A stretch of 64,000 nucleotides of DNA from the NCBI GenBank assembly GCA_044229975.1, contig JBGARZ010000002.1:384001-448000 (forward strand), read 5' to 3'. How positions within the stretch are numbered: the stretch's first letter is position 1; each line of letters begins with the position of its first letter. The translations under genes and the position numbers were made by a program. Under the pieces are notes generated by a model. It had not been told where the DNA came from and made no database searches. It was given only the letters and a program-made list of their open reading frames with translations. This DNA comes from Polyangiales bacterium (GTDB taxonomy: Bacteria > Myxococcota_A > Polyangia > Polyangiales > Ga0077539). Below, piece after piece: positions 24,115-55,742 of this stretch.

Positions 24115-24777
24115 CTAGCGGACCACGGCGCTTCGTGGGGAGGGACTCTGCCGCGGGGCGCGCACCTCGCGCTGACACTCCGACGCCTGCCGGTCGGCGT
24201 CGATCGCGGACAGCACGTATGAGCGCGGCGTCACCGAGAGGCGCGCCCGGTCACGACACATCGCGTCGCGCACCCGCAGGTGGGCTCCGACCGTCACGCG
24301 AACGCGGTGGGCGTCGTCGCCCGGCGGGTCGCTGGCATGGGCCGCGAGGTCGAGCGCGACGGCCTGCCAGAGGTCGTCGTTGCTGCCGCTGCACATCGTC
24401 GTGAGCGAGCTCGTCACGGCCTCGGCGCGCCGGTGATGGGCGTCGGTGGCGATGACCCGCAGCGGCCGACGCGCGACCTCGTCGCCCCAGCTCCGTCGCG
24501 AGACCGCGACGCGCAGGTCGTCGCAGTCGGCCTGGAGGAGAGCCCGCTGCGCGCCCGCCACCTCGCCCAGTCCGCCGCTGTCGCGCGCGTCCTGTGCGAG
24601 TCGGCCGAGGTCGCGGCGGGTCGCGTCGCCGCACGAGCAGATGCGCTCGGCGCGCGTCCACCACGTCGCCCGGTCGCGCCGCGCCCGCACCGCGAAGCCT
24701 GCGCCGACGAAGGCCAGCGCCGCGCCGACGACGACGCCAACGAGGGCCTTCCGAGAGGGAGCGTCGGCCACGCTCAC
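24115..24777 (-). CDS. Hypothetical membrane-anchored protein (last gene of tubulin-like operon)
   Basis: GTG overlaps the upstream TGA. TM segment ALVGVVVGAALAFVGAGFAV, then a helical domain with several Cys. Confidence 0.6.
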   Translation of the reverse strand: MSVADAPSRKALVGVVVGAALAFVGAGFAVRARRDRATWWTRAERICSCGDATRRDLGRLAQDARDSGGLGEVAGAQRALLQADCDDLRVAVSRRSWGDEVARRPLRVIATDAHHRRAEAVTSSLTTMCSGSNDDLWQAVALDLAAHASDPPGDDAHRVRVTVGAHLRVRDAMCRDRARLSVTPRSYVLSAIDADRQASECQREVRAPRQSPSPRSAVVR

Positions 24778-26642
24778 TCGCCCCGCAGGTGCGGGTCGAC
24801 GAACAGCGGCACCCGGAAGGTCGCGTTGAGCGCGTAGTGCTCGGTCGGCGCAGCAGCGCGCTGGCCGAAGCGACCCAGCACCAGGCCCGACCCCTCCATC
24901 ACCCACGCGATGAAGGTCTCCGCGGCCACGCGTCCGAGGCGCGCGCACTGCACCTCGGGCCGGTCGGCCTCGCCGTCGCCCACCGAGCGCCACGTCATGG
25001 CGTAGCGCTGGAGCGTGGCGAGACGGTCCCTCGCCCGTTGTCGCTCAGGATCGGCGCGCACCGCGAGCAGGGCGTCGCGCAGCACGTCGAGGGGGCGCTC
25101 GGCGTTGGGGAGCACCACGCGACCGAAGAGTTCCTTGCCCTCGTCGGCCGACCAGATGACCCGCGCGCCGTCGGAGCGCAGCTCCGCTTCACCGATGAAG
25201 TAGAGCCACAGCGCGAAGCCCAGCGCGCGCAGCTCGCCGACGTCCACCAGCCGCTGCGGCGCGCCAAAGCGCTCCACCAGGCCGACCGCCAGCGCCCCTT
25301 CGCCGCCCGGCACCGCCACGATGCGCGGGACGCTCTCGCCCGGCGTCCACCGCGCGAGCAGCGATCCCGTCTGCGGCGCCGCGACGCCGGGCTCCACCCG
25401 CGCGATCACCTCGCGCGAGAGGTGGATGCGAACGCCCCCCGCCTCGGCCTCGGCGGTCTGCGCCACGACCAGCCGAACGCTGTCGGGGAAGAGCACCGGA
25501 AACGCCGCCACGTCGGCTTCGGTGATGGCCGCGCGCCGCTGCGATCGCGCCGCGGCTGCGAGCAACGGGTTGAGCACGAGCGAGCGATAGCCCTGCGCGT
25601 TGGGGTGATCTTCGAGCCAGTGGGCCTGGCCGTGGCCGCGCGCCACGTTGGCGACGGACTCCAGGCGACCGACGCCCGCGAGCAGCTCGACGCCCGCCGT
25701 CGAGGCGCTGTCGGCCGCCATGCTGGTGCGCCCGGTGCCTGCGTCGCGCGACGTGTCCCGCGGGGCCATCCGCACCGTCACGACGGCGCGGCCGTTGGGG
25801 TCGACGAGGTCGACGGTTCCGCCTTCGCCGCGGATGGGCTGGAAGAAGAGCAGCTCCGCGAAGCGGGTGCCCCACCCCGGATCGCGCTGCGGCAGGTACG
25901 CGATGACCTCGCTCGCGTCGCTGCCGTTGCGCGGCACCACGCCGAGGCGCAGCGGGCCGACCCCGCGAGCGTCCGCCGAGAGCGCGCCCACCGACGGCGC
26001 CGTCTCGCCGAGCAGCACCTGCAAGCCCTTCTGCCACGGCGGCGCCGCTTCGTGTCCCGGCGACCACAAGCCGTTGCGCTCGAACCACCCGCGCCACTCG
26101 GCGAGCAGCTTCAGCGCGTCGGCGCGCTCGGCGCTGGCGTCGATGCGGGTCTTGAGATCGCTCCAGTAGTTTTCGCGCGCGACCCGCGGCGCGCACCACA
26201 GGAGACACATCGGATCGGCCCCGCCCACCAGCAGCCGTCGGCCTTCGGAGCCCTGTCGGCGCGCGTCGCGCAGGAGACCGAGAAACCGGCACTCGGGGCG
26301 CAGGTCGGCGAGCATCGCGCCGAGGTTGTCGACCTCGGGGCGGCGCAGGTCGGTGAGCTCCAGCGTGACCTCGCCGAGCACGAGACCGAGCAGGAGAAGA
26401 CGCCAGCGCTCGAAGGACTGCTGGAGCCGCGGGTTGACCAGCTCGGGCTGCGGCTGCTGGGCGCCCGGGTCGAGCAGGAGCTGCCCCAGCAGGTGGGACA
26501 TCATCTCGGCCTGCGCGAAGGGCGTCGGGAAGCTCTTGGTGCGCAGGTGCGCGGGCGTCGGCTGCCAGGCGCCCTTCTTCTGGTCGAGCGCGAAGGTGTC
26601 GGTGGTCGAGGCGTCGTTGGAGCCGGGGATGAGTTGGATCAC
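24774..26642 (-). CDS. Hypothetical 622-aa protein coupled to the tubulin-like gene
   Basis: Starts 4 nt after the tubulin-like stop. N-terminal SFPTPFAQA...WRLLLLGLVLG motif. Confidence 0.8.
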   Translation of the reverse strand: MIQLIPGSNDASTTDTFALDQKKGAWQPTPAHLRTKSFPTPFAQAEMMSHLLGQLLLDPGAQQPQPELVNPRLQQSFERWRLLLLGLVLGEVTLELTDLRRPEVDNLGAMLADLRPECRFLGLLRDARRQGSEGRRLLVGGADPMCLLWCAPRVARENYWSDLKTRIDASAERADALKLLAEWRGWFERNGLWSPGHEAAPPWQKGLQVLLGETAPSVGALSADARGVGPLRLGVVPRNGSDASEVIAYLPQRDPGWGTRFAELLFFQPIRGEGGTVDLVDPNGRAVVTVRMAPRDTSRDAGTGRTSMAADSASTAGVELLAGVGRLESVANVARGHGQAHWLEDHPNAQGYRSLVLNPLLAAAARSQRRAAITEADVAAFPVLFPDSVRLVVAQTAEAEAGGVRIHLSREVIARVEPGVAAPQTGSLLARWTPGESVPRIVAVPGGEGALAVGLVERFGAPQRLVDVGELRALGFALWLYFIGEAELRSDGARVIWSADEGKELFGRVVLPNAERPLDVLRDALLAVRADPERQRARDRLATLQRYAMTWRSVGDGEADRPEVQCARLGRVAAETFIAWVMEGSGLVLGRFGQRAAAPTEHYALNATFRVPLFVDPHLRGE

Positions 26643-26646
26643 GGCG

Positions 26647-28071
26647 TCAGCTCCGGAGGGCGGCGAGCAGCGAGCGCTCGATCTTCATGGCGAGCTCGGC
26701 GTCGGGGTCGGGCTGGTGCCCGCGGGCGCGCTCGGCCCCGGCCGTGGACTCGAACTGAAACGCATCGACCAGCAGCTTGAAGGCCTCAGGCGCCTTCCAC
26801 TGCCGGTGCTTGCGGACGGCGTAGAGCTGGCGCGCGCGCGGGTCGCCGAAGAGCGAGAGGTCGGTGTCGCCGAACACCTGCGCGAACCACGACGTGACGA
26901 AGCGGAGCTGGGCGCTGCGCGCTTCGAGGGCGTTGAGCACGCGCCGCGCGAAGGCCGAGTCGCGGTCGTGCTGCGCGCGGGCGACGTTGCTGATGAGCGA
27001 CCCCCAGGTGCTGCGCGCCTTCTCGTAGTCGAAGTCGACGAAGTCCGAGTCCTTCTGGCGAAACGACGCGTAGACCTCCTGAAGAATGAGCGCCTCCACG
27101 AGCCGCGCGCCGAGCGTGGCGTCGCGGGAGCCGCGCGGGGTGTTCCACTTGCGGCGCAGGGGCCAGGCGGGGTCGTGCTCGTCGTGCGAGAGGCCGTAGG
27201 TGCGGTGCATCGCGCGGGCCTGCGTGTCGGTCTTGTCGGGCAGCATCAGCAGGCCGTAGGCGGCGAGCAGGGGATACATGCTGACGGTCTCGTCGTTTTC
27301 CATCGCGGCGGGCACGGCCTTGATGTGCGCCGTGGGGTTGTCCGGAACGCCCAGCAGCACCGAGGCGTCGAGGAGCGCGCGGGTATACCGATAGAAGTAT
27401 TCGAGGCCGTGCCCCATCGAGGCGAGCAGGGTCGAGGTGTCGACGGTCTGCCCGGTGGTGGGCGGCAGGTCGAACCACCGCAACAGAAACGATCCGTAGA
27501 TGGGCTTCGCGGGCCCGACGGCCTCGCGCACCAGCTTGATGAGCTGGTGGGTGATGCCCGCGCCGGTGCCGCCGAGGAAGGAGCCCACGACAAAGATGCG
27601 CGCGGCGGTGCGGGCGCGGCCGAAGAGCGGGTCCATCGCGCCGCCCTTGCTCGACGCAAACACCGCGCTGCCGACGCTCGGATTGGCGAACATCCCCTTG
27701 CCGATGTCGACGCCCGCCGAGACGCCGACGCCGCCGTCCACGCCGCCCGACTCCTCGTCGTAGAAGAGCTCGAAGAGCTCGCGCTCCAACGGGTCGGCGC
27801 GGTCGTCGAGGAAGATCCGGCGGAAGGCCGTCTCCTTCATGGTGTCGCGCGCAAAGGGCGGGATCACCGCCTCGGCGCCTTCGAGCGGGTGAGGACACCC
27901 GGCGCTCACGGTGTTGCCGAAGGAGCGGAGCTTCACGGCGAGCCGCGAGTCGCTGTCGGCGTCGATGACGAAGGTCTCGATGGGCTCGGCGAGGGCGCCG
28001 ACCCGAAGGAGGCGCGCGACGGCGAGGGCGATGTGCTGTCCGCCGCCGCCGACGGCGATCACGAGGTCCAT
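26647..28071 (-). CDS. Divergent tubulin/FtsZ-superfamily GTPase
   Basis: N-terminal IAVGGGG loop, IDAD, GMFANPSVG, and signature loop GSFLGGTGAG (cf. GGGTG[ST]G) at about 27557-27575. Confidence 0.85.
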   Translation of the reverse strand: MDLVIAVGGGGQHIALAVARLLRVGALAEPIETFVIDADSDSRLAVKLRSFGNTVSAGCPHPLEGAEAVIPPFARDTMKETAFRRIFLDDRADPLERELFELFYDEESGGVDGGVGVSAGVDIGKGMFANPSVGSAVFASSKGGAMDPLFGRARTAARIFVVGSFLGGTGAGITHQLIKLVREAVGPAKPIYGSFLLRWFDLPPTTGQTVDTSTLLASMGHGLEYFYRYTRALLDASVLLGVPDNPTAHIKAVPAAMENDETVSMYPLLAAYGLLMLPDKTDTQARAMHRTYGLSHDEHDPAWPLRRKWNTPRGSRDATLGARLVEALILQEVYASFRQKDSDFVDFDYEKARSTWGSLISNVARAQHDRDSAFARRVLNALEARSAQLRFVTSWFAQVFGDTDLSLFGDPRARQLYAVRKHRQWKAPEAFKLLVDAFQFESTAGAERARGHQPDPDAELAMKIERSLLAALRS

Positions 28072-28108: not shown

Positions 28109-28633
28109 TCAGGTGCGGTTGGCGACGAGGCAACCCAGGAGGGTCACGACGAGAGTCGGGATGAGGCCGAGCACCAGCGCTCGCGCGAAGAGCTGGCTGC
28201 CGAGAAACACGTACTGCGAGAAGTCCGCCGAGTGCATGCACTGCTCGAGGATGTCGGCGCGCACCGGGTCCAGGCCCGCCACGGTGGTGCCGATGGCGCA
28301 CGCGAGGCCGACGCCCGTGAGGTAGCGACCGAAGGCGCTGCCCCAGAGCTTCTTGCGCATCACCACGAAGACCACGATGCCGATGAGCGAGGCGCCGACG
28401 GTGTAGCCCGCGGCGGAGATGAGCCCGTTCTTGCTCGCCTGCGTGCAGCTCTCCTGCGAGAGGTAGGAGGTGGGCGTCGCCGCGAACGACCCGCTGTTGT
28501 CACCGGTCGTCGTGGGCGCGGCGGGGACGGGTGCGGGCGCGACCGCGGCGTCGGCGCCATTGGCGGGTTGCGCGGGCTCGGCGGGCCAGCTCGGGGTGTT
28601 CGCGCGGGGTTGCAGGAGCAGGTTCGGGTGCAT
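28109..28633 (-). CDS. Small multi-pass membrane protein (first gene of tubulin-like operon)
   Basis: Pro/Ala-rich N-terminus followed by about 3 hydrophobic helices. Ends 37 bp upstream of the tubulin-like gene. Confidence 0.7.
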   Translation of the reverse strand: MHPNLLLQPRANTPSWPAEPAQPANGADAAVAPAPVPAAPTTTGDNSGSFAATPTSYLSQESCTQASKNGLISAAGYTVGASLIGIVVFVVMRKKLWGSAFGRYLTGVGLACAIGTTVAGLDPVRADILEQCMHSADFSQYVFLGSQLFARALVLGLIPTLVVTLLGCLVANRT

Positions 28634-28785
28634 TGCGGAGCGCCGGAGCAAAGCCCCCTTCGGGCACATGCGTCAAGGCCGTCGCACCGACGGCCGTCGG
28701 TGTCGCGAAGGTTCGCGGTGACCAGTGCGGCCGGAACATGCGACAGTCGTCGGGCACTCTCGTCTACGGAGGCTTTGGTGGTCCT

Positions 28786-31758
<2,973 letters not shown>

Positions 31759-31809
31759 CTCCAACAGCGCGGTTGCGACGGGCGGTGGTGTCCTTCACCC
31801 TCGCGCGTC

Positions 31810-34746
31810 GTGACCGAGGGCAACGACCCACCGCGCGATGCCTGGCTCGAAGTCGGGACCTCCGCATCCGAACCCGCTCCCCTCACCCAACCTCCCATCG
31901 CATCGGAGTCCTGGCTCCAGGCCGATCCCACCACCCCGGGCGCGGAGCCGGCGCGTCGCAAGGCCAAGGCCTCCGAGCGTGCCGCCCCGACCGCTGCCCA
32001 GGATGCGGCGTCCGTCGCCATCGTCGCCGCGCTCCAACGCGACCTGCCCCTCATGGCGGCGCTCTGGCCCGACGTTCGACCCGCCGAGCTCCTGCGGTCG
32101 CCGCCGCCCGCGGAGGCGTTTCAGGCCCGCTGCGATTTCGCTCGCCGCGCCGTCGACGCCGTCGGTCGTCGCGACGCCGAGTCCCGTGCCCGCGCCGAGG
32201 TCGCGCAGCGTCGGCTCGCCGACCAGCTCTCGCTCCTCGGTCGCGGCGGTGCTCCGGTCGCGGCGGCGCTGGTCGAGCTCGAAGCCCTCCAGGCCGGAGA
32301 GCTCCTCGACGCCGTGCGGACGCTCTTCCGTGACCAGCGAACGCTCTTCGCCGGTGACGTCGCGCGCGTCGACGCCGCGGCGGTGGAGGTCGGCCTCGCG
32401 CCGACGAGAGCGCGAGAGATCCTCGTGGGTGCGGGCTTCACGCTGGAGTCCGTCGAGGCGCGTCCGTGGTCGCCCTTCGCGCAGCTCCCCGGCGCGCCTG
32501 CCACCATGGATCAGCTCGCCGCCGCGCTCATGGCCCACCCCGCGCAGGCCATCGAGCTGCTTCGGCAGGGCGCGGTCGTCGAGTGGCTGCGGGCCAACGG
32601 CGCGAGCCCCAGCGTCATCGAGCGCTCGCGTGAGGTGCGGCTCGCGGCCGAGCGCGGCGGCTCTCCGCGGCTCGCGCTGCACCTCCAGGTGTGGGCCCTC
32701 GGTCGACGTGAGCTGCGCCTCGGGTCGGCGGTGGTTCCGTCGCCGGACTCCGTCGGGTCGATGGTGCGGAGCGGCGCGCTGACCCTCGACGAGCTCGCGG
32801 CCGCCGCGCACGAGGGGCTGCTCGCGACGTGGCTGCGCCTGTCCGGCTGGATCGTCGCCGCGGGCGCCGCGGACCTCGTCGCGCGCCATGACCCCAGCGG
32901 ACTCAAGCGCCTCGCGTGGTCGCTGGGCGAGCCGCTCTACCTCGGGTCGACGCCGATCACCGACGCGTCGTCGCTCGCGCGCGAGTCGCTCGCCAGTGGC
33001 CCTGCGCGCGAGGCCGTCGCCCCGTTGCTCTCGTCGGGCGACCTCATCGCGTGGATGGAGTCGCTCCCGCCGCCGCGCCGCGACGAGCGCTGGCTCGACG
33101 GGCTGCGACGCGCCCACGACGACCCGGCGCAGCGCGGAGACTCGCTGGCGTTCTGGATCGGGGTGTACGCGCTCACCCGCGCGCCGCTCTTCGAGGTGAT
33201 CGACCGGCGCGGCGTGACCCACGCCTTCAACGGGGTCGCCGCGCTCACCGTGACCCCGCAGCTCGCGGACGCGTGGGACGCCCTCAAGCGCTGCCACCGC
33301 AGCGGCGAGCTGCTCGCGTGGGTCATCACCCAGCGCCCCGAGCTCCCGCTGCCGACGCTCCCGCGGCCGCCGCGCGAAGAAGACGCCGAGCTCAACGAGC
33401 TGCTCTGGGCGCTCGGTCATCGCGGTCTGGTGCTGGAGTGGGGCGAGCGCGACCTCGCCATCACGGCGCCCACCGACCTGGTGCGCGCCTACCGCGACGA
33501 CTGGCGCTCCCTGGAGGCGATGCTCCCGCGGGGCCACGTCTTCGCGTGGATCTCCCGCTTCCACGGCGATCGTGCGCTCGTGCCGCGCGACCACGAGGGA
33601 CCGGGGCTCTCCGTCGCGGAAGCGCTGGAGGCGCTGCGCCTGGAGCTGCCTCGCCTCCCGGCGGGCTTCGCGGCGCTCAAGGTGGCCCTGCTCTGCGGAC
33701 TGCGCGCGCTGCCGACGGACCCGTGTCGCCCCGGCGATGACGCCACCGTCGAAGGCTTCGTCGACGTGACCCTCAAGCCCGACGGCGACACGCGCGCCTG
33801 GGAACCTCTGCGCGCCCATGTTCTCCATGGGTCGGCGCTGCTCTGGGTCGCGCTCGACCCGCGGGTGCGCCGCAGCGTGACCCGCTCGCTGCTCCACGCC
33901 GCCTTCGCCGCCTGGAACCCGGGTGTCAACCAGGTCGAGCACGCCGATCGGGTGATGGCTGGCCTGTCGCGCACCTTCGGTCGGCCGGTGCCTTCGCCCG
34001 CCCTCCAGGCGCGGCTGTCTCTCGTCGCCGACGAGGGTCGCCGCTCCATCGAGATGACCCGGCAGCTCGTCGACGCGCGCCGCGGTCGTCGACGCCTCGC
34101 GGCGCTCGCGATGTTCTTCTTCCTCGCGCTCTGCGGAACGGGCGCGCTCCTGCTGCGACCCGCGGCGGGCGTCGGTGAGCAGAGCCCGGGCGCGACCGAG
34201 GCGCTGGTGCGTCTGCGGGTCGAGGTCACCATCCCGGACGCGCAGCGCGGCCACCCGTGGGACCTCGACGGCAGCGGCCCCGAGCTGCACCTCGCGCTCC
34301 AGACGCGCGACGGACCATTGGAGATCGGACCGTGTCAGGCGGGCCGCGAGTGCGCGCAGACCTTCGACAACGTGCGCCTCGCCGCCAACACGCCGCTCCA
34401 GGTGGTGCTCGACGAGGATGACGTCGTGCGGCGCGAGCTCGTCGGCCGCACATGGCTGCGATGGCTGGGCGGTCGCGAGGAGACGCTCCGCAGCACCATC
34501 GGTCCGTGCGTGGTGCGCGTGGAGGTGAAGCGGGTGCTCCAGCTCCCCTCGCCGATCGCTCCGACCCCGACGGCGACCGCCACCACCACGCCTGCCCCGA
34601 CCCGGACCCCACGCGTCGACGCGGGCGCCTCTCCCGCGCGACCCGCCACGACCCGGCGCCCGCGCCCTTCGCGACGCGCGGCCGACGCGGGTGCGGCGAC
34701 CGAGGGGCTCCTCCCGACGCTGCAACGCGAGATCCTCTCGCCATGA
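31810..34746 (+). CDS. Helical-repeat membrane protein with C-terminal C2-like domain
   Basis: Repeated G.(L/V)..W(L/M/V/I) helical units and TM segment LAALAMFFFLALCGTGALLL. After the TM, WDLDGSGPE...VLDEDDVVRRELVG is C2-like. Confidence 0.7.
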   Translation: MTEGNDPPRDAWLEVGTSASEPAPLTQPPIASESWLQADPTTPGAEPARRKAKASERAAPTAAQDAASVAIVAALQRDLPLMAALWPDVRPAELLRSPPPAEAFQARCDFARRAVDAVGRRDAESRARAEVAQRRLADQLSLLGRGGAPVAAALVELEALQAGELLDAVRTLFRDQRTLFAGDVARVDAAAVEVGLAPTRAREILVGAGFTLESVEARPWSPFAQLPGAPATMDQLAAALMAHPAQAIELLRQGAVVEWLRANGASPSVIERSREVRLAAERGGSPRLALHLQVWALGRRELRLGSAVVPSPDSVGSMVRSGALTLDELAAAAHEGLLATWLRLSGWIVAAGAADLVARHDPSGLKRLAWSLGEPLYLGSTPITDASSLARESLASGPAREAVAPLLSSGDLIAWMESLPPPRRDERWLDGLRRAHDDPAQRGDSLAFWIGVYALTRAPLFEVIDRRGVTHAFNGVAALTVTPQLADAWDALKRCHRSGELLAWVITQRPELPLPTLPRPPREEDAELNELLWALGHRGLVLEWGERDLAITAPTDLVRAYRDDWRSLEAMLPRGHVFAWISRFHGDRALVPRDHEGPGLSVAEALEALRLELPRLPAGFAALKVALLCGLRALPTDPCRPGDDATVEGFVDVTLKPDGDTRAWEPLRAHVLHGSALLWVALDPRVRRSVTRSLLHAAFAAWNPGVNQVEHADRVMAGLSRTFGRPVPSPALQARLSLVADEGRRSIEMTRQLVDARRGRRRLAALAMFFFLALCGTGALLLRPAAGVGEQSPGATEALVRLRVEVTIPDAQRGHPWDLDGSGPELHLALQTRDGPLEIGPCQAGRECAQTFDNVRLAANTPLQVVLDEDDVVRRELVGRTWLRWLGGREETLRSTIGPCVVRVEVKRVLQLPSPIAPTPTATATTTPAPTRTPRVDAGASPARPATTRRPRPSRRAADAGAATEGLLPTLQREILSP

Positions 34747-42130: not shown

Positions 42131-42147
42131 TGAGCATCGGGTTTGCA
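42131..42147 (+). promoter_or_regulatory. Imperfect sigma54 -24/-12 promoter candidate
   Basis: TGAGCATCGGGTTTGCA versus consensus TGGCACGN4TTGC. The -12 element is good, but -24 has AG instead of GG. Confidence 0.3.
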
Positions 42148-42193
42148 GTGGGGCCCTGGGCTCTCCCACCAACCGAAGGATCCCATCCCTCCG

Positions 42194-43795: not shown

Positions 43796-43819
43796 CCGCG
43801 AACCCCGCGGCCCCTCCGA

Positions 43820-45285
<1,466 letters not shown>

Positions 45286-45289
<4 letters not shown>

Positions 45290-46740
45290 GCGCTCCTCTC
45301 CGGGTCGACCGGGAGCTCGATGCGAAACCTGGTGCCGCTCGCGTCGGACGACGCGACGGTGAGGTCACCCCCATGCAGCCGGGCCACCTCGCGTGCAAAC
45401 GCAAGCCCCAGCCCGATGCCCGCGGGGCGATCGATGGTGGCCACGGCGCTCGCGGAAAAAGGTCGAAACAGGTTGGCCCGCACTTCGTCGGCGATGCCCG
45501 GTCCGTGGTCGCTCACCTCGATCACCACCTTCCGCCGCGGGCCCTCCACGAGCGTTCGCTCGACCCGCACCGTAGCCCCCGCGCTCGACACCGAGACGGC
45601 GTTGCGGAGCAGGTTGGCGACCGCCCGCTCCACCAGCGCCGAGTCCATGTCCAGGGTCGGCGCCGTCCCCTCGCAGACCACCTCCACCACGACGCCGCGC
45701 TCGTCGGCCTCGGTGCGCTCGTCCTGCGCCGCGGCCGCCACCGCGCGGTCGACGTTGCCGCCGCCCTCGCGCATCACCGGGAGGCCCGAGCGCAGCCGCG
45801 ACATGTCCAGCAGCGCCTCGACGATGCGAACCTCCCGCTCGCACGCCCGCATCCCCAGGCTGACCACCCGCTCCTGCTGCGCGGTGAGGGGCCCCGCGGT
45901 GCCGTCGGCGAGCAGCCCGAGCGCCTCGCGCAGCCGCGTCAGCGGCGAGCGCAGCTCGTGCGACACGTTCGCCAGGAACGCGTGCTTCATCCGCTCCAGC
46001 TCCATGAGCCGCTCGCGCATGCGGTCGAGGTCGCTCCAGAGCGCCCGCACCTCCGCGGGGCCGTGGGCGTCGGGAATCGGCGCGAAGTCCCCCTCCCCGA
46101 CGCGCGTCGCGGCCCTCGCGAGCGACGCGATGGGCTCGGCCACGCTGCGCGCCGTCGAGCGCGCGATGACGATGGCCGCCAGCGCCGCGAGGAGCGCGAA
46201 CCCGAGGCCCGTCAGCGCCGTACGTACCCCGATGCGACGGGCCTCCTCCTCGCGCGCCCGGATGTCGCCGTGGAGCTGGTGCATCCGGGCGATCCAGGCG
46301 TCGGTCATGTCCTCGTCGAGGGCCGCGCGGAGGGCGTCGGTGCGCGGCGAGCGGAGGTTGGCGCAGACGTCCCCGGTGGTCACGCCGTCGGCGAGCGAGA
46401 CGTACCGACGCGCCGCCGCGAAGAGGGGCCGCGAGTCCTCCACGCGTCGGCTCCCGAGGACGCGGTGCAGCGCCTCCCGCGCGCGCTCGACGGAGGCCCG
46501 CACGTCGTGGTCGGGCGCGCCCGCCCCGCACGCCACGCGCCCGTGACGCACGCCCACCTCGATGGACCACGCGGCGCGGTGGAGTTCTTCCTCCGCGGCC
46601 ACCGTGGAGAGATGGTCATCGCGGATGTCGGTGATGAGCCCGAGCATCCGCACGAGGCCCTGCAGCGTGACCACGAGCAGGATGAGCAGGAAGGCCACGA
46701 AGGCGCCGTGGGTGATGCCAAGCTGGGTCGAGAGGCGCAT
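45286..46740 (-). CDS. Sensor histidine kinase with HAMP domain, GlrK(QseE)-like
   Basis: Two TM helices, HAMP, H-box SHELRSPL, N-box NLLRNA, DHGPGI and GIGLGLA. Stop overlaps the regulator start. Confidence 0.92.
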
Positions 46741-46887
46741 TGGGGGGCGGACCATCGAGCTGAACCGCTCGCGACTCTAGACCACGGCCGGTCCGGGAGT
46801 CGGGGTTTCGCCAGGAGGCGCGAGTTCGACAAGGTCCGACGAGCGCCTCGTGGCAACGTCACACCACCGCGCCGGGCTCACGGACGC

Positions 46888-46938
46888 TGTCGGTGACCGC
46901 CGACAGCCGATGGCGCGCTCCGTCGGAGCGTCACGACA
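46888..46938 (+). promoter_or_regulatory. Pair of GlrR-type enhancer boxes upstream of carbonic anhydrase
   Basis: TGTC-N10-GACA at 46888-46905, within the palindrome GCTGTCGG...CCGACAGC, and CGTC-N10-GACA at 46921-46938. Confidence 0.6.
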
Positions 46939-47002
46939 CCCGCCGCTCCGAGAGAGTGCACCGATCCCTTGATCGCCCGCGGAGAGCGCATCGCCACGTC
47001 GA

Positions 47003-47018
47003 CGGCACGGACCGTGGT
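47003..47018 (+). promoter_or_regulatory. Sigma54 -24/-12 promoter candidate
   Basis: CGGCACGGACCGTGGT: canonical GGCACG at -24, with GG rather than GC at -12. Confidence 0.35.
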
Positions 47019-47031
47019 CTGTGGTCGTCCC

Positions 47032-47694
47032 ATGCGACGACTCCTCGACGGTCTCCAGCGGTACGAGCACTCGAAGAAGTCGGGATACGCCAGCCGCTTC
47101 GCGAAGCTCGCCCTCACTCAGTCTCCGCCGGTGATGCTTCTCACCTGCTCCGACAGCCGCCTGGTGCCCAACCTGTTCACGTCTTCCGGGCCGGGCGAGA
47201 TCTTCTTCGTTCGCAACATCGGCAACATCGTCCCCGCCTACGACGTCGACGGCGACGCGAGCGTGCCGGCGGCGATCCTGTACGGCGTCGACGTCCTCGG
47301 CGTGAGCGACATCGTCGTCTGCGGACACTCCGACTGCGGCGGCATGAAGGCCCTGCTCGCGCCCCCTCCCAGGGACCCTCACCTCCGCCGCTGGCTCTCC
47401 TACGGCACGGCCGCCGTCACCTCCTTCCACGAGCGCGGCGCCGGCGAGCCCTCGCGCGCCCTGCACGACCAGCTCTCGCAGTGGTCCGTGCTCCGGCAGG
47501 TCGAAAACCTCTCGCGCTACCCCTGCGTCCGCGAGCGGCTCGCGCAGGGCACCATCAACCTCCACGCGTGGTGGTTCGACATCGCCTCGGGCTCGGCGCT
47601 CGCCTACTCGGAAGCTGACGCCGCGTACATCCCCGCCGTCGATGACCTCTCGTCCCGCCTCGGGGACGACGAGTCTGCCCTCCACGTCGCCTGA
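47032..47694 (+). CDS. Beta-class carbonic anhydrase
   Basis: Zn ligand motifs CSDSR and GHSDCGG, plus GEIFFVRNIGN. Confidence 0.95.
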   Translation: MRRLLDGLQRYEHSKKSGYASRFAKLALTQSPPVMLLTCSDSRLVPNLFTSSGPGEIFFVRNIGNIVPAYDVDGDASVPAAILYGVDVLGVSDIVVCGHSDCGGMKALLAPPPRDPHLRRWLSYGTAAVTSFHERGAGEPSRALHDQLSQWSVLRQVENLSRYPCVRERLAQGTINLHAWWFDIASGSALAYSEADAAYIPAVDDLSSRLGDDESALHVA

Positions 47695-48726: not shown

Positions 48727-51700
48727 ATGGAGCAAGACACCCACTGCGAACACTGCGGCTTCGACCTGAGCCGCCTGGAGATGACGGTGCTCTTCGCGCG
48801 CAAGGGCGCCGAGCCCCGCAAGCTGCACTGCCCCATCTGCCGCAGCGATCGGGTGAAGATCCGCGCGCTGGAGCGGGTGTTCCCGCGGGCCGACTCGGGG
48901 CGCTGGGTGCGCTGGCGCGAGGGCGGCGTCGCGGGCCCGGCCAACGTCATCGCCGTCGGTCGGCTCAAGCTCCGCGTCGAGAGCGAGATCGAATCGCTCG
49001 CCAAGGAGCAGATCTGCTTCCGCGCGGTTCCGGTCTTCATGTCGGGGGGCGAGCGGCACATCCCGGTGCTGCCGGTGATGCCCGAGTACCTCGACTGCCT
49101 CGACCCGGCGCAGGTGCGCCTCGCCCGCGAGAAGCCCTCGCTCTTCGGCAGGGTCATCCAGGAGAAGGGCAAGTCCCGCTACCAGTGCGTGCTGCCGCTG
49201 CGTGGGCTCAAGCAGACCGAGTGGCCGACGTACGAGTGCGACCTGCTTCCGGCCAACCCCTTCTCGCCCAACGCCGGTGACGTCGACGCGGTGGCCTTCC
49301 GCGGCGTGACGCTGCGCGTGTGGCCCAACCTGCGGCGCCCCACCAACGCGTGGCGCTACTACGTCGCGGGCATCCACGCGGCGACCGAGGAGGGAATGGC
49401 GCTCTTCTCCCAGGGGCGAATGCTCCGCACGCGGATGCTCGTCCCGCCGAGCGACGCCGACGGTCGACCCACCAGCGAGACGAAGCTCGAAGTGGTCGCG
49501 CTCGATCAGGAGGTCGGCCGCGAAGGCGAGAGCGGTCCGACGGGCTACGTGGGCGCCACCCGCAAGGGGCGGCCCGCGTGGGTGAGCGTGGAGTTCATGC
49601 AGGCCACGCAGGGCGGCGGGGCCGAGCCCGTGGGCGGAGGTCTCTTCCCGCTCGCGCCACCGAGTGACGGGCTACCGAGCGACACGTGGTCCTTCGGCGT
49701 GGACTTCGGAACGTCCAACACCGTCGTCGCGGTGAAGCGCCGCGACGGCAACCTCCAGTGCGTCTCCCCGGAGCGCGGCCGCGACCGTGCGACGACCACG
49801 CTCAACCTCCTCGACGGCGGCCCTCCGACCATCCAGCGCGGCATCGATCTGTGGCCGGGCGGCGAGTGGTCCGGGCCCTATCACGACCTCCTCCCGAGCG
49901 AGCTCGGCTGCGTCCGCAAGTGGACCGACGTGGCCTCCGAGACGGCCATCAACGCGCTGTCCTTCGGCAAGGACTTCGGCGTCCCGTTGCGAGGCGCGTC
50001 GAGCGCGGTGTCGTCCGAGCACACCGTGAGCGAGTTCAAGTGGCTGCGCGCGGTGGAGAAGGACAAGAGCGCCCTCGCCCGCCGCGAGATCGTGCAGGCC
50101 CTCCAGTCGCGCTTCCTCGAAGCCGCGATGCTGATGACGGCGGCATCACTGCTGTCGGAGGAGGAAGCCTCGCCGCGTACGGTCAACGTCAACTACAGCT
50201 TCCCGCTGGCCTTCGACGAAGGCGACCTGGAGACGCTGCGCCTCGCCGCCGACGCCGCGGGCGAACGCCTCAAGCAGCTCACCGGCGCCGACTTCGTCTT
50301 CCCCGCGACGCCGCTCGTCGACGAGGCGCAGGCCGCGGCGGGGCACGCGTCATCCGACAAGATGTTCCGCGTGTACCTCGACCTCGGCGGCGGCTCGCTG
50401 GAGGTGCTCGTCGACGACACCCTGGCGCGCCACAACCACCAGGGCCACGCGGGGCTGCACCCCCACGTCTTCAGCTCATCGATCTTCTTCGGCGGCAGCG
50501 TGTACCTCCGCTCGCTCGTCGGCGCGGGCGAAGGCGATCGTCGCGGCGCGTGCGTGATGCCCGGCGTGGGCTCGTACACGCGCCTCGCGAGCGCGGTGCG
50601 TCAGAGCGTGTCGGCCAAGGCGCTCCTGGAGTCGCCCCACGTCATCGTCGAGGCGCGCAAGGCCACCGCCGAGCGACGCGCGCGGGTCTTCATCGGCTAC
50701 GTGGTGGAGTACGTCGCGCGCACGCTCGCGGGCGTCTGCCTTGAGCACGGCCGCACCGCCACTGGGGCGCTCGACCTGTCGCGCAACCGCCTCTTCTCGC
50801 TGACGGGGACGGGCTCGCAGCGGCGCTGGATTCTCGGCATCAACAAGGGCCCGCAGCAGCGGCGCGTGGTGGAGTTCTGCCTGGTGCTGCTGGGCAACGG
50901 CTGGGGCTTCGGCGACATCGTCCGCGACGGCATGAAGACCGTCGAGCAGATGATGGCCCATCGGGTCTATGAGCGGCTCCTGGAGCTGCTGCGCGAGACC
51001 GACATCGCGAGGGAGATCGGCGACGGGGAGTTCAACCTCCTGAGCGCCAACCTCGCGTTCGACATCTCCTTCGTGTTGCCCACCGAGGGGTCGCACCGCA
51101 AGGCCGCCGTCGCGCTCGGCCTGCTCGGCGCCCACCACAGCACAGAAGACGCCGCCCGCTTCTTCAAGAACCGCGCGCCCGAGCGCCACGGCGTCCTCGG
51201 CCTCGACCTCTGGCTCAACGACCAGAACCGTCGCATCCCCTGGTACCGACCGTTCGGCCCGCCCGCGCAGGACGACCCGAGCCAGTTCGAGTCCTTCGTG
51301 CCGGTCGTCGAAGCACCCGTTGCCGCGGTCGCACCCGTTGCCGCGGTTGCGCCGGTGGCTCCGATCATGCCCGCGATGCCGCCGATGGTTCCGCCGATGC
51401 CCGTCGTGATGCCCGCGCCCGTCGCGATGCCCGCGCCCATGGGCGCGGCGTATCCGGGCTTCGCGATGCCGCTGGAGATGGTCGCCTTCGCGCTGGTGCA
51501 GCAGTGGCCGATGCTTGCGGCGCAGGCGGCCGCGTCGGGCATCAACCCGGTGGAGTTCGCGCAGCGCCAGCTCTGGCAGCAGGTGGTGACGCAGGCCACG
51601 CAGGGAGCGCAGTCACCCGAGCGGCTGCTCGCGTCGCAGCAGTGGCAGAAGCTGATGCAGACGATGGTGATGCCGGGCATGACGCCCGAGCAGCTCGCGT

Positions 51701-51903
51701 GGGTGCAAAACCAGCAGATGACCTTCGTGTCGGCGCAGGCCGCGCAGCGCGGTCAGAGCCCCGAAGGCTTCCTCGCGGCGCAGCGCTGGGAGCAGCTCAT
51801 CGCGATGCTGACCCCGCCGCCCGACCCCACGTCCGGGGCTCTCCCGCCGATGCCCGGAATGCCTCCCATGCCCGGTATGCCCCCCTTCGGAGGAACCCGA
51901 TGA
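48727..51903 (+). CDS. Large actin/Hsp70-fold ATPase with N-terminal zinc ribbon and Pro/Met/Gln-rich tail
   Basis: CEHC...CPIC zinc ribbon. Phosphate-1 GVDFGTSNT (about 49699), YSFPLAF, DEAQAA connect motif, phosphate-2 LDLGGGSLE (about 50380) and adenosine-like LLGNGW. Confidence 0.8.
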   Translation: MEQDTHCEHCGFDLSRLEMTVLFARKGAEPRKLHCPICRSDRVKIRALERVFPRADSGRWVRWREGGVAGPANVIAVGRLKLRVESEIESLAKEQICFRAVPVFMSGGERHIPVLPVMPEYLDCLDPAQVRLAREKPSLFGRVIQEKGKSRYQCVLPLRGLKQTEWPTYECDLLPANPFSPNAGDVDAVAFRGVTLRVWPNLRRPTNAWRYYVAGIHAATEEGMALFSQGRMLRTRMLVPPSDADGRPTSETKLEVVALDQEVGREGESGPTGYVGATRKGRPAWVSVEFMQATQGGGAEPVGGGLFPLAPPSDGLPSDTWSFGVDFGTSNTVVAVKRRDGNLQCVSPERGRDRATTTLNLLDGGPPTIQRGIDLWPGGEWSGPYHDLLPSELGCVRKWTDVASETAINALSFGKDFGVPLRGASSAVSSEHTVSEFKWLRAVEKDKSALARREIVQALQSRFLEAAMLMTAASLLSEEEASPRTVNVNYSFPLAFDEGDLETLRLAADAAGERLKQLTGADFVFPATPLVDEAQAAAGHASSDKMFRVYLDLGGGSLEVLVDDTLARHNHQGHAGLHPHVFSSSIFFGGSVYLRSLVGAGEGDRRGACVMPGVGSYTRLASAVRQSVSAKALLESPHVIVEARKATAERRARVFIGYVVEYVARTLAGVCLEHGRTATGALDLSRNRLFSLTGTGSQRRWILGINKGPQQRRVVEFCLVLLGNGWGFGDIVRDGMKTVEQMMAHRVYERLLELLRETDIAREIGDGEFNLLSANLAFDISFVLPTEGSHRKAAVALGLLGAHHSTEDAARFFKNRAPERHGVLGLDLWLNDQNRRIPWYRPFGPPAQDDPSQFESFVPVVEAPVAAVAPVAAVAPVAPIMPAMPPMVPPMPVVMPAPVAMPAPMGAAYPGFAMPLEMVAFALVQQWPMLAAQAAASGINPVEFAQRQLWQQVVTQATQGAQSPERLLASQQWQKLMQTMVMPGMTPEQLAWVQNQQMTFVSAQAAQRGQSPEGFLAAQRWEQLIAMLTPPPDPTSGALPPMPGMPPMPGMPPFGGTR

Positions 51904-52211
51904 GCCAAGACCCCAGAGTCCCCCCCGTCATCGGCACGCGTGACCTCTACCAGTTCGCCGAGGAGCCCATCGCGCAGAAGGTCCAGCTCACCATCCTCGA
52001 AACCCCGAAGATGCCCTCCGACCTTCCTGGGCCGTCGAAGATCGATCCGGGTCTCGAAGCCACCAAGGTCGCCGTTGAGGCCCAGCTCGCGCGCAACGCC
52101 ATCGCGCCGCTGCCGCTCGTTCCGCCCGCCTCGACGCGCTGGCTCCGCTTCTCTCCGCTCGAGCTCTTCATGGAGCACGTTCTCGCCCGCCGCCTCTGGA
52201 CCATCGAATAG
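51900..52211 (+). CDS. Small hypothetical protein
   Basis: ATG overlaps the upstream TGA (MSQDPRVPP...). About 103 aa with coding-like codon usage. Confidence 0.65.
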   Translation: MSQDPRVPPVIGTRDLYQFAEEPIAQKVQLTILETPKMPSDLPGPSKIDPGLEATKVAVEAQLARNAIAPLPLVPPASTRWLRFSPLELFMEHVLARRLWTIE

Positions 52212-52221: not shown

Positions 52222-52626
52222 ATGGCACGCCCCCTCCGCGTCTCCGTCCGCTGTCCGCACGCCAAGCCCGAGGACCTCTGCTCCCTCCCGCCCGGCGTCC
52301 GCTACTGCCTCTGCTACGCCGACCAGCACCGCGAGCCCGTCGGCGTCGTGAGCGTGCAGCACGGACAGCTCCTCTGGTCGGTGCCCGTCGCGGGGAAGGC
52401 CCGCGGGCTCTACTCGTACGTCGCCGTCGTTCGGCAGGGCACCGTGCTCACGCCGGTCGAGTTGCAGGACGAGGTCGCCGTCCGCGAGACCGTCGAAAAC
52501 GGCCGCGCCATCTACATCCTCCGCGGCCCGCGCGATCAGCGCCTGGAGGTCGCCGCCGCCTCGCTCGTCGAGGCCGCCGTGGACAACCGCGAGTACGTCG
52601 ATGCCAGCGTCATCACCGCGCACTGA
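52222..52626 (+). CDS. Small beta-rich hypothetical protein
   Basis: MARPLRVSVRCPH..., 10 bp after the previous stop. About 134 aa with four Cys near the N-terminus. Confidence 0.65.
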   Translation: MARPLRVSVRCPHAKPEDLCSLPPGVRYCLCYADQHREPVGVVSVQHGQLLWSVPVAGKARGLYSYVAVVRQGTVLTPVELQDEVAVRETVENGRAIYILRGPRDQRLEVAAASLVEAAVDNREYVDASVITAH

Positions 52627-54091
52627 GCGCGCGGTCGCAGCGGCGCTGCTCGCCCTCGCCGCCTGCAACTCCCGCTCGCCCTCGTCGCCCACCCCGCCGG
52701 GCCCGTCGCCCGTCCCCACGCCGACCGCGCCCACCGCCCCCGCGGTCCCACCCGGCCGCGGCGCGCAGGTCTTCGTCGACGTCTCCGAGAGCATCCGCGG
52801 CTTCACCTCGACGCGCTCCACCGCGCTCCAGACGCTGCACGCGCAGGTCATCGAAGCGTCGCTCTCCGCGCTCCAGCTCAACAACCCCTTCCAGCGCTGC
52901 GCCGTCGACGCCGCCGTCCGTTGCACCGCTCCGCAGCTCACCGCGCAGCAGGCGCGCCTCCCTACGACCTATGCGGGCGCCTCCGCGTCGTTGCACCTCG
53001 CGCTCCGTCGCCCGCCTCGCGCTCCGCGGCCCGACCTGCAACAGCCCGATCCGCTCGACCCGTACAACATCACGGTGCTGGTGACCGACGGCTTCCAGAG
53101 CACCAGCACGCCCTTCCAACCGGGCGCGACGGGCGACGTTGCGTGCACCGCAGGCGCCGACCCGAGCTGCCTCGCGGCGCTCCTCCGACAGCGCGTGGAA
53201 GAGGGCTACGGCCTGTGGGTCGGTCGGCTCATCCTCCCCTTCGACGGCCGCTACTTCGCCGAGCGTCGCCTCGACCCGGCGATGTGGACGCGGGTCACGC
53301 AACACGTCGCCGCCCTCAACACCGACCCTCTCTGGAACGGCGTGCGCTTCAACGCCTCCTCCCCATCGATGACCGGCGAGTCGGGCGCGTTTCGCTGGCA
53401 GGGCGCGCGGCCGTTGTTGGTGTTCGTGCTCACGCGGGACATCCCGCGCGGTCGACAGTTCGTCGGCGAGATGCAGCGACGCTTGCAGGTCGAGCGCATC
53501 ACGCTGCGACAGTCGGCGTCGGACGTCGACTTCAGCGAGTGGTCGCCCTTCGAGGGCCTCACCGCGCGCGTGCTCAACGCCGTCCGCAACGAGAGCGGCG
53601 GTACCTCCGACAGCGTCCTCGTCGATCGTCCCACGCGGCAGGGCGAGACCTTCATCATCCCCGCGCGTTGTGACGTCCACGGCCAGGCGCGCATCCGCAT
53701 GGACGGTGCCATCCAGTTCGGCGCGATGCCTCCGCCGCCCATCGCGCAGGTGTCCCTCACCTGGCAGTCGCCCGCTCCCCTCGACAGCTTCTTCCTGATG
53801 CCGCGCGAGGTGATGAACACCACGGCCGGACCCTTCACCGTCCGCACCGGCATCGACTGTCGGCAGCTCCCGCCCGGCACCCGCGACTACAACTTCGGCC
53901 TCTTCGGTCGATGGACCGTCAACCCCGCCGTGCTCGCCTCCGAGTGGTACACGACCGGCAGCGCCGAGACCTCGTACGACAGCCCCGAGAAGGTGTTCGG
54001 CCTCGCGGACCTCGCGCGCACCGTCATCGCCGCCGGCGTCAATCGCCAGGGTTATCTCGACCGCGTGACGCTCCGGGTCACGCGCCAGTAG
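52601..54091 (+). CDS. Lipoprotein with vWA-like (MIDAS) domain
   Basis: Lipobox LLALAAC and Pro-rich tether. MIDAS motif VFVDVSES (DxSxS) and VLVTDG. Confidence 0.75.
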   Translation: MPASSPRTERAVAAALLALAACNSRSPSSPTPPGPSPVPTPTAPTAPAVPPGRGAQVFVDVSESIRGFTSTRSTALQTLHAQVIEASLSALQLNNPFQRCAVDAAVRCTAPQLTAQQARLPTTYAGASASLHLALRRPPRAPRPDLQQPDPLDPYNITVLVTDGFQSTSTPFQPGATGDVACTAGADPSCLAALLRQRVEEGYGLWVGRLILPFDGRYFAERRLDPAMWTRVTQHVAALNTDPLWNGVRFNASSPSMTGESGAFRWQGARPLLVFVLTRDIPRGRQFVGEMQRRLQVERITLRQSASDVDFSEWSPFEGLTARVLNAVRNESGGTSDSVLVDRPTRQGETFIIPARCDVHGQARIRMDGAIQFGAMPPPPIAQVSLTWQSPAPLDSFFLMPREVMNTTAGPFTVRTGIDCRQLPPGTRDYNFGLFGRWTVNPAVLASEWYTTGSAETSYDSPEKVFGLADLARTVIAAGVNRQGYLDRVTLRVTRQ

Positions 54092-54104
54092 GCGATCACC
54101 GCGC

Positions 54105-55742
54105 GTGGCGATCTACGGCATCGACCTCGGAACGACGTACTGCTCCGTCGCCTACGTCGAGCGCGGTCAGCCCCGCCTCGTCACGCTCGAAAACGGCGGC
54201 CCCACCCTCGCCTCGCTCGTCCTTCTCTCTTCTCGTCCGACGCCCCGCGCCCTCGTCGGCGCCCACGCTCCAGCGGCCTATCGCGAGCTCGTCGGCGAGG
54301 CCGAGCGCGCGCCCGATGACGTGGTCCTCGTGCGCGGCTCCAAGAACCACATCGGCGTCGGAACGGCCGTCTACGCCGGTCCCCCGTGGCGTCTCGGAGC
54401 ACAGGAGCTCTTCGCGACCGACGTGGCCGCGGTGATCCTCCGCGCGCTGGCCGAGATGGTGCGCGCGCGCCCGGCGTTGCCGCCGCTCGACGGCGTGGTG
54501 GTGTCGCACCCGCAGCGCTTCCGCAACCGCGAGAAGCTCGCCACCGGACAGGCCGCGAAGATGGCCGGCCTCCCGCTGTGGGGAATGATCACCGAGCCCG
54601 ACGCCGCGGGCTGGGCCTACGGTCTCCAGTCGAGAGCCGCGAGCACGTCACAGACCTTCATGGTCTTCGACTTCGGCGGCGGAACCCTCGACGTCACCCT
54701 GCTCCGTCGCGACGGCGCACGTCTTCAGGCCATCGACTCCTACGGGGTTCAGCTCGGCGGGCTCGCGATCGATCAGCGCGTCCGTGACGCCCTCGTCGCG
54801 CAGTACGCCGAGCGCGCGTCCGACCAGGCGTTCAGCCTCGCGGCGGTGAACGAATCCACCCGCGAACGCCTCCTCGAACTGGCCGAGTGGTTCAAGGTCT
54901 CGCTCAACACCGACGCTGGCGCCGACCCCTCGCCGCTGTCGCGGGTGCGCCGACGGAAGTTCACCCCGGTCTTCGACCGCGACACCGAAGGCGAAGAGGT
55001 CACCCTCGAACTCTCCCTCGCCGACCTCGCGCGCTGCATCGGCGGCGAGCTCGACCGCGCCATGGCCTGCGCCGACGAGGCCCTGCGCCGCGCAGGTGTC
55101 GATTGGAGTTCCCTGGATGAGGTTCTCCTCACGGGAGGCTCATCGCTGCTCTGGCCGATGCAGCAGCGCATGCGCGAACGCTGTCCAAGGGTGCGAATCC
55201 ACGACGATCCCGGGCACCCGTTGAACCCGCTCACCATCGTCGCGGCGGGGGCGGCCGTCTACGGCGCGTCGCTCGCCGAGGGAGGCGCTCGCGTGGGCGT
55301 CGAGCTGCGCGGCGTGGTGCCCGACACCTTCCACGTGCGCGCGTGGGAGCCCGCGCCGGGGACGCCCGAGGGTCGTCGCGCGGTGCTCATCCCCTTGGTC
55401 CCGGCGGGGACGGCGACGCCCTTCGTGGGGCGACGGACGTTCAGCGTGCGCGGCGGGTCGAGCGTGCTCCCGGTGGAGGTCTTCGAGGGCCGCTCGGAGC
55501 GCGAGGCGACCCGCGTGGGCGAGTACCGATTGACCTTCGCGCAACCGATGCCCGATGGCGCGAAGGCGGAGGTGCGCCTCGACGTGCGCGCCAACGGGGT
55601 GCTGGTGCTCTCGGTGCAGGACGCGGCGACGGGCGACGTGCGCGAGGCCCGTCTCGACGACGCGCCGGGCCTCTACTCGGACGACGAGCTCGCGAAGCGA
55701 GCGTCGTGGCTGCAATCGCTCCGCGTCGACTGGAACGGCTGA
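54105..55742 (+). CDS. Hsp70/DnaK-family protein lacking the C-terminal lid
   Basis: GIDLGTTY, ITEPDAA, FDFGGGTLDV and LLTGGSS. Substrate-binding-domain motifs VEVFEG and LDVRANGVL. Only 545 aa. Confidence 0.9.
   Translation: MAIYGIDLGTTYCSVAYVERGQPRLVTLENGGPTLASLVLLSSRPTPRALVGAHAPAAYRELVGEAERAPDDVVLVRGSKNHIGVGTAVYAGPPWRLGAQELFATDVAAVILRALAEMVRARPALPPLDGVVVSHPQRFRNREKLATGQAAKMAGLPLWGMITEPDAAGWAYGLQSRAASTSQTFMVFDFGGGTLDVTLLRRDGARLQAIDSYGVQLGGLAIDQRVRDALVAQYAERASDQAFSLAAVNESTRERLLELAEWFKVSLNTDAGADPSPLSRVRRRKFTPVFDRDTEGEEVTLELSLADLARCIGGELDRAMACADEALRRAGVDWSSLDEVLLTGGSSLLWPMQQRMRERCPRVRIHDDPGHPLNPLTIVAAGAAVYGASLAEGGARVGVELRGVVPDTFHVRAWEPAPGTPEGRRAVLIPLVPAGTATPFVGRRTFSVRGGSSVLPVEVFEGRSEREATRVGEYRLTFAQPMPDGAKAEVRLDVRANGVLVLSVQDAATGDVREARLDDAPGLYSDDELAKRASWLQSLRVDWNG

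Follow-up and report, generated by a model that had tools for sequence, protein, structure and literature searches.

Two tightly packed gene clusters of a Polyangiales bacterium, lying about 20 kb apart and pointing away from each other, raise the question of whether the divergent tubulin-like GTPase encoded in one and the actin-fold ATPase encoded in the other belong to a single system. The window analyzed here, a stretch of 64,000 nucleotides (G000:C38:384001-448000) from a genome of 10 Mb, has a guanine-plus-cytosine (GC) content of approximately 72%. The closest protein matches with a name bear Myxococcales or Polyangiales labels, so that an uncultured myxobacterium is the probable host. 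A previous sequence-only reading had proposed that the clusters form one system, possibly broken by rearrangement. Our results agree well with the first part of that proposal: the two clusters are almost certainly the separated halves of one conserved system. Their homologues co-occur, adjoin each other in one relative (G014) and at each of the 15 informative distant loci, and take part in more than one type of fusion. The nine genes concerned are as follows.

28109..28669, minus strand: small multi-pass membrane protein, 186 amino acids as called (likely start at the second ATG, near 28633)
26647..28071, minus strand: predicted divergent tubulin/FtsZ-superfamily GTPase, 474 amino acids; T1, T3, and T4 motifs, weak Pfam matches
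24774..26642, minus strand: bridging protein, 622 amino acids, no known fold; SFPTPFA motif, fused to its partners in other bacteria
24115..24771, minus strand: N-terminally anchored membrane protein, 218 amino acids, at the break point; one transmembrane segment
48727..51903, plus strand: actin/Hsp70-fold (ASKHA) protein, predicted ATPase, 1058 amino acids; profiles, structure model, five motifs
51900..52211, plus strand: split-off C-terminal domain of the ATPase, 103 amino acids; hhalign 97.2%
52222..52626, plus strand: Cys-rich small protein after the ATPase gene, 134 amino acids; family matches and weak distant positional matches
52601..54091, plus strand: lipoprotein, 496 amino acids; lipobox and a MIDAS-like DxSxS...TDG motif (vWA-like)
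54105..55742, plus strand: lidless Hsp70, 545 amino acids; PF00012 match

All nine open reading frames (ORFs) are present, with high GC at third codon positions or tight packing. In the order listed, the minus-strand genes are spaced by 37, 4, and 2 bp and the plus-strand genes by -4, 10, -26, and 13 bp, and the starts of the two runs are separated by 20,058 bp, as the first description of two tight, divergent runs had it. Both clusters are intact and conserved.

Co-occurrence, adjacency, and fusion

Forty relatives were surveyed, 24 from the same family and 16 from other families. The tubulin gene was found in 22 and the ATPase gene in 21 of the family genomes, and both were found in the same single genome among the 16 others. 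In G014 the genes for the membrane protein, tubulin, 622-residue protein, ATPase, 103-residue protein, 134-residue protein, and lipoprotein constitute a single run. Moreover, distant loci were collected from Myxococcota, Acidobacteriota, and Gemmatimonadota records and from genomes of the same phylum, the scan of the genome collection taking in 9 of its 64 parts. A set of 24 such loci was reduced by 4 close members of the family and by 13 short matches to the Hsp70 motif (9 of the 13 checked); of 10 further regions, 3 of Hsp70 type and 1 on too short a contig were dropped. In all 15 informative loci (L042, L044, L065-L069, L071, L074, L115-L119, and L122), the tubulin and the ATPase are consecutive around the bridging protein or fused, the tubulin of L069 being called from motifs and likeness to L074. 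Chance proximity of unrelated operons is ruled out by this adjacency and by the single run in G014.

It can be observed that the fusions are of three kinds. Tubulin and bridging protein share one ORF in L071 (an Acidobacteriota record), L118, and L122, the latter two recognized from motif, position, and a weak profile score. The bridging domain is fused to the ATPase in L069 and L074, and also in P0083 from Longimicrobium, where an N-terminal domain with the SxP(S/T)P motif is joined to the ATPase and the protein matches both window proteins; a protein with this motif and a DFGTSNT domain had been described in the sequence-only reading, and it exists. Triple fusions of tubulin, bridge motif, and ATPase occur in L119 (~1467 amino acids), P0147, and P0129, in chains of 1470-1640 amino acids. 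The ATPase motifs of P0129 were missed by the pattern search, yet the protein aligns within the fused family, and the window ATPase profile scored 99.8% against that of the fused-type ATPases. Together with the tail match of the 103-residue protein described below, the fusions therefore mean that four proteins in the family of the window correspond to what elsewhere can be a single chain. Homologues that never co-occur, neighbor, or fuse had been named in advance as the contrary outcome; all three relations were seen. The common ancestry of the halves, both nucleotide-binding folds, the fusions, and purifying selection are demonstrated by the comparisons reported here.

Some further features of these loci were recorded. 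The triple fusion of L119 (L119:472-12106) is located directly downstream of a MukB-family gene, and a ZorA-like plus ZorB-like pair stands at the cassette end in L071:15702-18478 and L118:1656-4276. The fused-type ATPase P0134 carries at its N-terminus, instead of the bridging domain, what we take to be a TIR-like domain (precomputed PF13676). The bridge gene of L042 is read in two frames, as are several genes of L045-L047 (G002), system and housekeeping genes alike; for L045-L047 this suggests assembly errors rather than decay.

Tubulin, bridging protein, and ATPase

A tubulin-like GTPase had been expected at 26647-28071. Its loops T1 (GGGGQH), T3 (GMFANPSVG), and T4 (SFLGGTGAG) are kept in 18 of 18 aligned rows, with GGTGAG invariant in all of them, and by these loops the 474-residue product is predicted to be a divergent GTPase of the tubulin/FtsZ superfamily. 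The T4 loop, xGGTGAG, has one Gly fewer than the canonical signature. In Pfam, Tubulin_2 (PF13809) was matched at E 9.5e-6, its 25.5 bits falling below the cut-off of 27, and Tubulin at E 0.0014; weak RepX/TubZ profile matches were also obtained, and the fused relative in L071 reached a Tubulin_2 score of 27.0. Whole proteins of the family measure 461-497 amino acids and therefore have no room for the long coiled coil that FtsZl1, discussed below, has along with a helical C-terminal domain; a crude heptad score was non-discriminating for coiled coil in the family. A phage origin was rejected, viral contigs having given 7 stretches and 0 confirmed tubulin relatives. A replacement for FtsZ or MreB was likewise rejected, as canonical ftsZ-ftsA and mreB are present elsewhere in G000.

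The two motifs of the fused protein are divided in the window as had been proposed, the 622-residue protein carrying SFPTPFA at residue 37 and the 1058-residue protein carrying DFGTSNT at residue 326. For the former, the bridging protein, the structure model has a predicted local distance difference test (pLDDT) score of 78.6; it gave no PDB or viral structural match at E<=0.001, and nothing usable was obtained from Atlas. When 16 bridge N-domains, trimmed around the motif, were compared with the N-terminus of the fused giants, hhalign returned 94.6% over 107 columns, against <=1.8% for nine other windows used as the control.

The actin-fold ATPase expected at 48727-51903 is borne out by profile matches to Hsp70/MreB, by an AlphaFold model (pLDDT 83) with Foldseek matches to the Hsp70 nucleotide-binding domain (NBD) at E 1.5e-9, and by the phosphate-1, connect-1, phosphate-2, adenosine, and connect-2 positions, all kept across 27 ATPase rows. 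By motifs and modeled fold, the protein has the actin/Hsp70 (ASKHA) fold and is a predicted ATPase. It is composed of an N-terminal CxxC...CxxC knuckle, a beta-rich region, the NBD at residues ~320-830, and a variable Pro/Met/Gln-rich tail, which in the window contains a repeated helical unit and in the second-copy ATPase L042:11236-14670 is replaced by three GYF_2 domains at the end. Two small proteins had been described after the ATPase gene. Both ORFs are there, but the 103-residue one belongs to the ATPase itself: compared with the tail of 13 unsplit ATPases it gave 97.2% in hhalign (E 3e-11), six other windows giving <=0.5%, and it is the ATPase's C-terminal domain, freed behind the Pro-rich tail.

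Splitting, constraint, and inheritance

The gap between the two runs contains, by Pfam, genes for an AddA-type helicase-nuclease, an acyltransferase, a sulfate permease, a sigma-54 regulator and kinase, a carbonic anhydrase, and a GHMP kinase. One further gene of the gap is relevant here.

31810..34746, plus strand: single-pass membrane protein, 978 amino acids; neighbor of the system in other loci

In the window, G014, and G020, this gene and the membrane-tubulin-bridge run point away from each other. The genes after the 978-residue one are plsC-addB-addA in this genus, G009, G012, and G018; in G021 they are plsC and addA. In G001, G002, G004, and G008, thrB lies within ~430 bp after addA, so the block at 42143-47694 of the window, which places the sulfate permease, sigma-54 regulator, histidine kinase, and carbonic anhydrase between addA and thrB, is an apparent recent insertion. 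Inverting the thrB-to-bridge block of the window would restore the joined order, and the layout of the window likely arose from one inversion ending at the bridge/ATPase junction. The proposed inversion of 24.1-48.7 kb therefore fits the synteny; the break, however, is no accident of one genome. The main copy is found in 23 genomes, with both halves in hand for 20, and bridge-ATPase adjacency is absent in 22 and kept only in G014, which is sister to the split G020 in both the tubulin and the ATPase trees (FastTree, 30 rows). Since the flanks of the split halves differ between genera, repeated breaks at a single tolerant junction are preferred over one early break followed by rejoining in G014.

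Selection was assessed by the ratio of nonsynonymous to synonymous substitution rates (dN/dS) within the genus (G001, G003, G004, and G008), as dS saturates farther out at this GC; rows of G003 were discarded for genes outside the fetched loci. Values of 0.09-0.13 for the tubulin, 0.13-0.16 for the bridging protein, and 0.11-0.15 for the ATPase compare with 0.18-0.40 for addA, plsC, and thrB (three genus members). A decaying remnant is ruled out by these low values and the intact frames. In G004, G008, G012, G014, and G016, tubulin identity is 94, 94, 78, 82, and 55%, respectively, and full-length FtsZ identity is 87, 85, 71, 67, and 68%, so that in four of the five the tubulin shows the higher conservation. 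Furthermore, well-supported splits agree between the tubulin and ATPase trees in 14 of 17 and 15 of 19 cases, with a patristic r of 0.96.

Membrane, lipoprotein, and chaperone partners

The 28109..28669 product has two strong hydrophobic segments, and profile matches place its gene next to that of the tubulin, both in the family and at 9 of 15 distant loci; it is a conserved component. The 218-residue anchored protein of the same run, with its one transmembrane segment, is present as had been described, but it is a lineage-limited local add-on: its gene is matched in the genus, G011, and G012, whereas G014 and 5 other loci of the tubulin side gave no match, and it evolves faster (62-66% identity within the genus). 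The 978-residue membrane protein, missed by the sequence-only reading, is a likely accessory. Its gene lies <=~5 kb from the membrane/tubulin genes in G002, G011, G014, G020, L042, and L068, and is not near the tubulin in G009, G012, and G018; the family is present in 23 of 24 relatives. A paralogue of 1598 amino acids is divergent from a second lidless Hsp70 (G000:C20:208080-215614), the pair being adjacent in ~10 relatives, and may be a stand-alone two-gene module.

The 134-residue protein is strongly matched in the family and in second copies; at 7 distant loci, a protein in the corresponding position gave a weak match (E 4e-6 to 0.45). The 496-residue lipoprotein has Cys22 of the lipobox and Asp60 invariant in 13 rows, along with DxSxS and TDG motifs; its nearest named Atlas cluster is VWA_2, at 0.76, a lead only. 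The lipobox marks a lipoprotein, as had been described, and by its metal ion-dependent adhesion site (MIDAS)-like motif the protein may be of the von Willebrand factor A (vWA) type, but the vWA fold itself drew no Pfam or PDB match. The Hsp70 at 54105-55742 matches PF00012 at E 2.6e-41, with the match ending at 507 of 599 positions, and therefore lacks the lid, as had been claimed. Against the DnaK equivalog it scores 153 bits, the cut-off being 822, and the match ends at profile position 504-507 of ~600; judged from its sequence, it is not a canonical DnaK with full NBD, substrate-binding domain, and lid. The lidless Hsp70 is found in 7 of 15 distant loci and unmatched in 8, and its family is in 23 of 24 relatives, 7 of which have it on another contig than the ATPase; it is a frequent but mobile accessory.

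Other observations concern the surroundings. Cys-rich repeat proteins border the tubulin run on both sides (22151-24103 and ~28764-31764, minus strand), the former with a jacalin-like domain at its end. After the Hsp70, in the genus and G012, there is a gene (window ~56700-57527) whose product presumably resembles an Fpg/Nei glycosylase. Of 11 proteins, two received a name from NCBIfam, the Hsp70 and the acyltransferase, and PADLOC gave no match among the nine window proteins. A promoter scan of the window returned 0 sites, and 2 terminator-like sites were found against 1.9 expected, which is uninformative at this GC. Six RNA runs contain just 5-6% of the words and were not counted as expression; nor were contigs from relatives in four RNA runs, which span both halves at ~85-99% identity, as contigs cannot show transcription.

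Function of the system

How the products work together can be considered stepwise. A physical complex of tubulin, bridging protein, and ATPase is probable in view of the three kinds of fusion. Confidence is evenly balanced on the further claim that the products of the clusters constitute an envelope-anchored machine of two nucleoside triphosphatases (NTPases) with a standing envelope or cell-contact role, a role considered because the system is near-universal in the family, vertically inherited, strongly conserved, and located among housekeeping genes. Initially, the lipoprotein would bind a ligand outside in a metal-dependent manner, and its signal would be passed inward by the small membrane protein or, in some lineages, by an ion motor. 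In the cytoplasm, the bridging protein would couple the tubulin-like GTPase to the actin/Hsp70-fold ATPase. GTP and ATP cycles would subsequently assemble and release a membrane-bound scaffold, whose variable Pro-rich or GYF tails may bring in partners and for which the lidless Hsp70 would be a dedicated assembly chaperone. The most specific form of the proposal, offered tentatively and with less than even confidence, is that a tubulin-fold GTPase and an actin-fold ATPase coupled by a bridge of new fold represent an undescribed signal-triggered scaffold across the envelope, domesticated in the family into a near-essential cell-surface function (contact, adhesion, or membrane remodeling).

Several results weigh against one coupled system with a standing envelope role. 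The 94.6% score of the bridging domain comes from the motif-trimmed set, in which ~110 columns align, and the full-length bridge profile gave 11.9% against the fused giants. The bridge halves of L122 and L119 were called by motif and position, and the bridge profile reached L118 just at E 0.057. No conserved T7 motif NxDxxD/E was found at the expected place in the tubulin alignment, which bears on polymerization, and the vWA label of the lipoprotein, with no Pfam or PDB profile match, is motif-based. The tubulin is less conserved than FtsZ in G016 and less conserved than MreB (82-96%) in all five genomes compared. Between the tubulin and ATPase trees 3-4 supported splits conflict, and tree congruence among kin is co-inheritance, no proof of co-evolution or binding. 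Outside the family the distribution is patchy: of 298 non-family genomes sampled from the phylum, 7 have a confirmed member of the ATPase family, a floor, since two candidates were scored per genome. Finally, in L071 and L118 the cassette is followed by ZorA-like (E 5e-7 and 0.002) and ZorB-like (E 4e-15 and 2e-20) genes.

These last two points lead to the foremost alternative, namely that the clusters are one system of anti-phage or anti-competitor defense, in which sensing of an envelope breach triggers assembly of the two NTPases in a Zorya-like or NTP-thresholded manner. The MukB-family gene upstream in L119, the second, divergent copy in G015 (there spread over two short contigs) and G019, and the variable tails with GYF domains are all in keeping with it, as is the presence of tubulin and Hsp70 in the predicted conflict systems described in the part of PMC7159879 available to us. 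However, no nuclease, TIR, or other effector is seen among the window genes, and MotA/ExbB frames in G000 are all <=315 amino acids, so no long ZorA-type gene was found. Near-universal retention, low dN/dS, housekeeping neighbors, and an operon that survives splitting also fit defense poorly, and it is rather unlikely.

Envelope protein quality control, in which the two Hsp70-type ATPases and the vWA-like lipoprotein would handle stressed membrane proteins and the tubulin would be a mere switch, is improbable. The model of the large ATPase is nearest to Hsp70 NBDs, but its Foldseek matches are confined to the NBD; the lidless Hsp70 accompanies the system in 7 of 15 distant loci, but it is unmatched in the other 8; and vWA/chaperone pairs occur in the available part of PMC7159879, but a Pfam scan of 25 window proteins gave no J-domain or GrpE gene. 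Halves of common ancestry that were uncoupled in the family and now work separately, as might be suggested by the common break point of 22 of the 23 genomes, their differing flanks, and the new anchored gene that some lineages have behind the bridging protein, are very improbable given that both halves are retained together in nearly all genomes, under similar constraint and with matching trees, and that the joined G014 is nested among split genomes.

The proposed envelope-anchored machine can be approached in parts. The family is a natural dissection of a giant protein into a tubulin of 474, a bridging protein of 622, an ATPase of ~850 folded, and a tail of 103 amino acids. The parts are separate, well-folding genes, and therefore interfaces and activities are testable piecewise. 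Because the system is retained almost universally in one family, that family is well suited for choosing between a standing envelope role and defense. A caution should also be noted: where an operon looks "tubulin-less," the tubulin gene may lie at another place in the same genome.

Comparison with known systems

In FtsZ/FtsA and MreB systems, a tubulin-fold GTPase works with an actin-fold ATPase at the membrane. The pairing of a tubulin-fold GTPase with an actin-fold ATPase at the membrane is shared with FtsZ/FtsA, but the window system differs from FtsZ/FtsA and MreB in its bridging protein, lipoprotein, and gene fusions, with no T7 identified, and G000 keeps its own ftsZ-ftsA and mreB besides it. 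Zorya is built on the ZorA/ZorB ion motor. The likeness lies in the two distant cassette copies (L071 and L118) that end in ZorA-like and ZorB-like genes, while there is no ZorA/ZorB pair in the window, no long ZorA-type frame in G000, and no ZorC-E-type effector matched.

FtsZl1-vWA operons, with Pfam Tubulin_2 PF13809, are predicted to act in membrane remodeling (Makarova and Koonin 2010, PMC2875224). As far as the accessible portions of that paper describe them, they resemble the window system in that a divergent tubulin-like GTPase coexists with canonical FtsZ and has membrane partners and a vWA-type one (in the window vWA-like by motif), in that some loci include OmpA/MotB proteins, and in that the function is predicted. 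By the same portions, FtsZl1 is of a coiled-coil type of ~1000 amino acids, whereas the window tubulin has 474 and falls under the Tubulin_2 cut-off, and the P-loop GTPase partner is lacking among the same 25 window proteins. The constant partners of the window system, bridging protein and large ASKHA ATPase, are not among the components that supplement 6 gives, and one row of supplement 5 is annotated DnaK/HSP70 (1626 amino acids). In the accessible text of PMC9871819, Tubulin_2 proteins serve as outgroup only.

GAP1 and TRAFAC GTPases form the basis of the GAP1-N2/DO-GTPase conflict systems (Kaur et al. 2020, PMC7159879). Within one operon family, the available sections describe tubulin, vWA, Hsp70 (some truncated), zinc ribbons, GYF, and membrane proteins, and NTP-driven assembly is proposed there, as here. 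No GAP1 or (DO-)GTPase is found among the 25 window proteins, the distant loci being read by eye and with our own profiles. In the open-access literature, no description of this system, or of direct coupling of a tubulin to an actin fold up to full fusion, was found; it is a real, undescribed multi-gene system, present here in an informative split form. In the GAP1-N2 systems, as those sections present them, the tubulin theme and the Hsp70 theme do not overlap; in the window system, by contrast, the tubulin and the ASKHA ATPase are constant, fusible partners.

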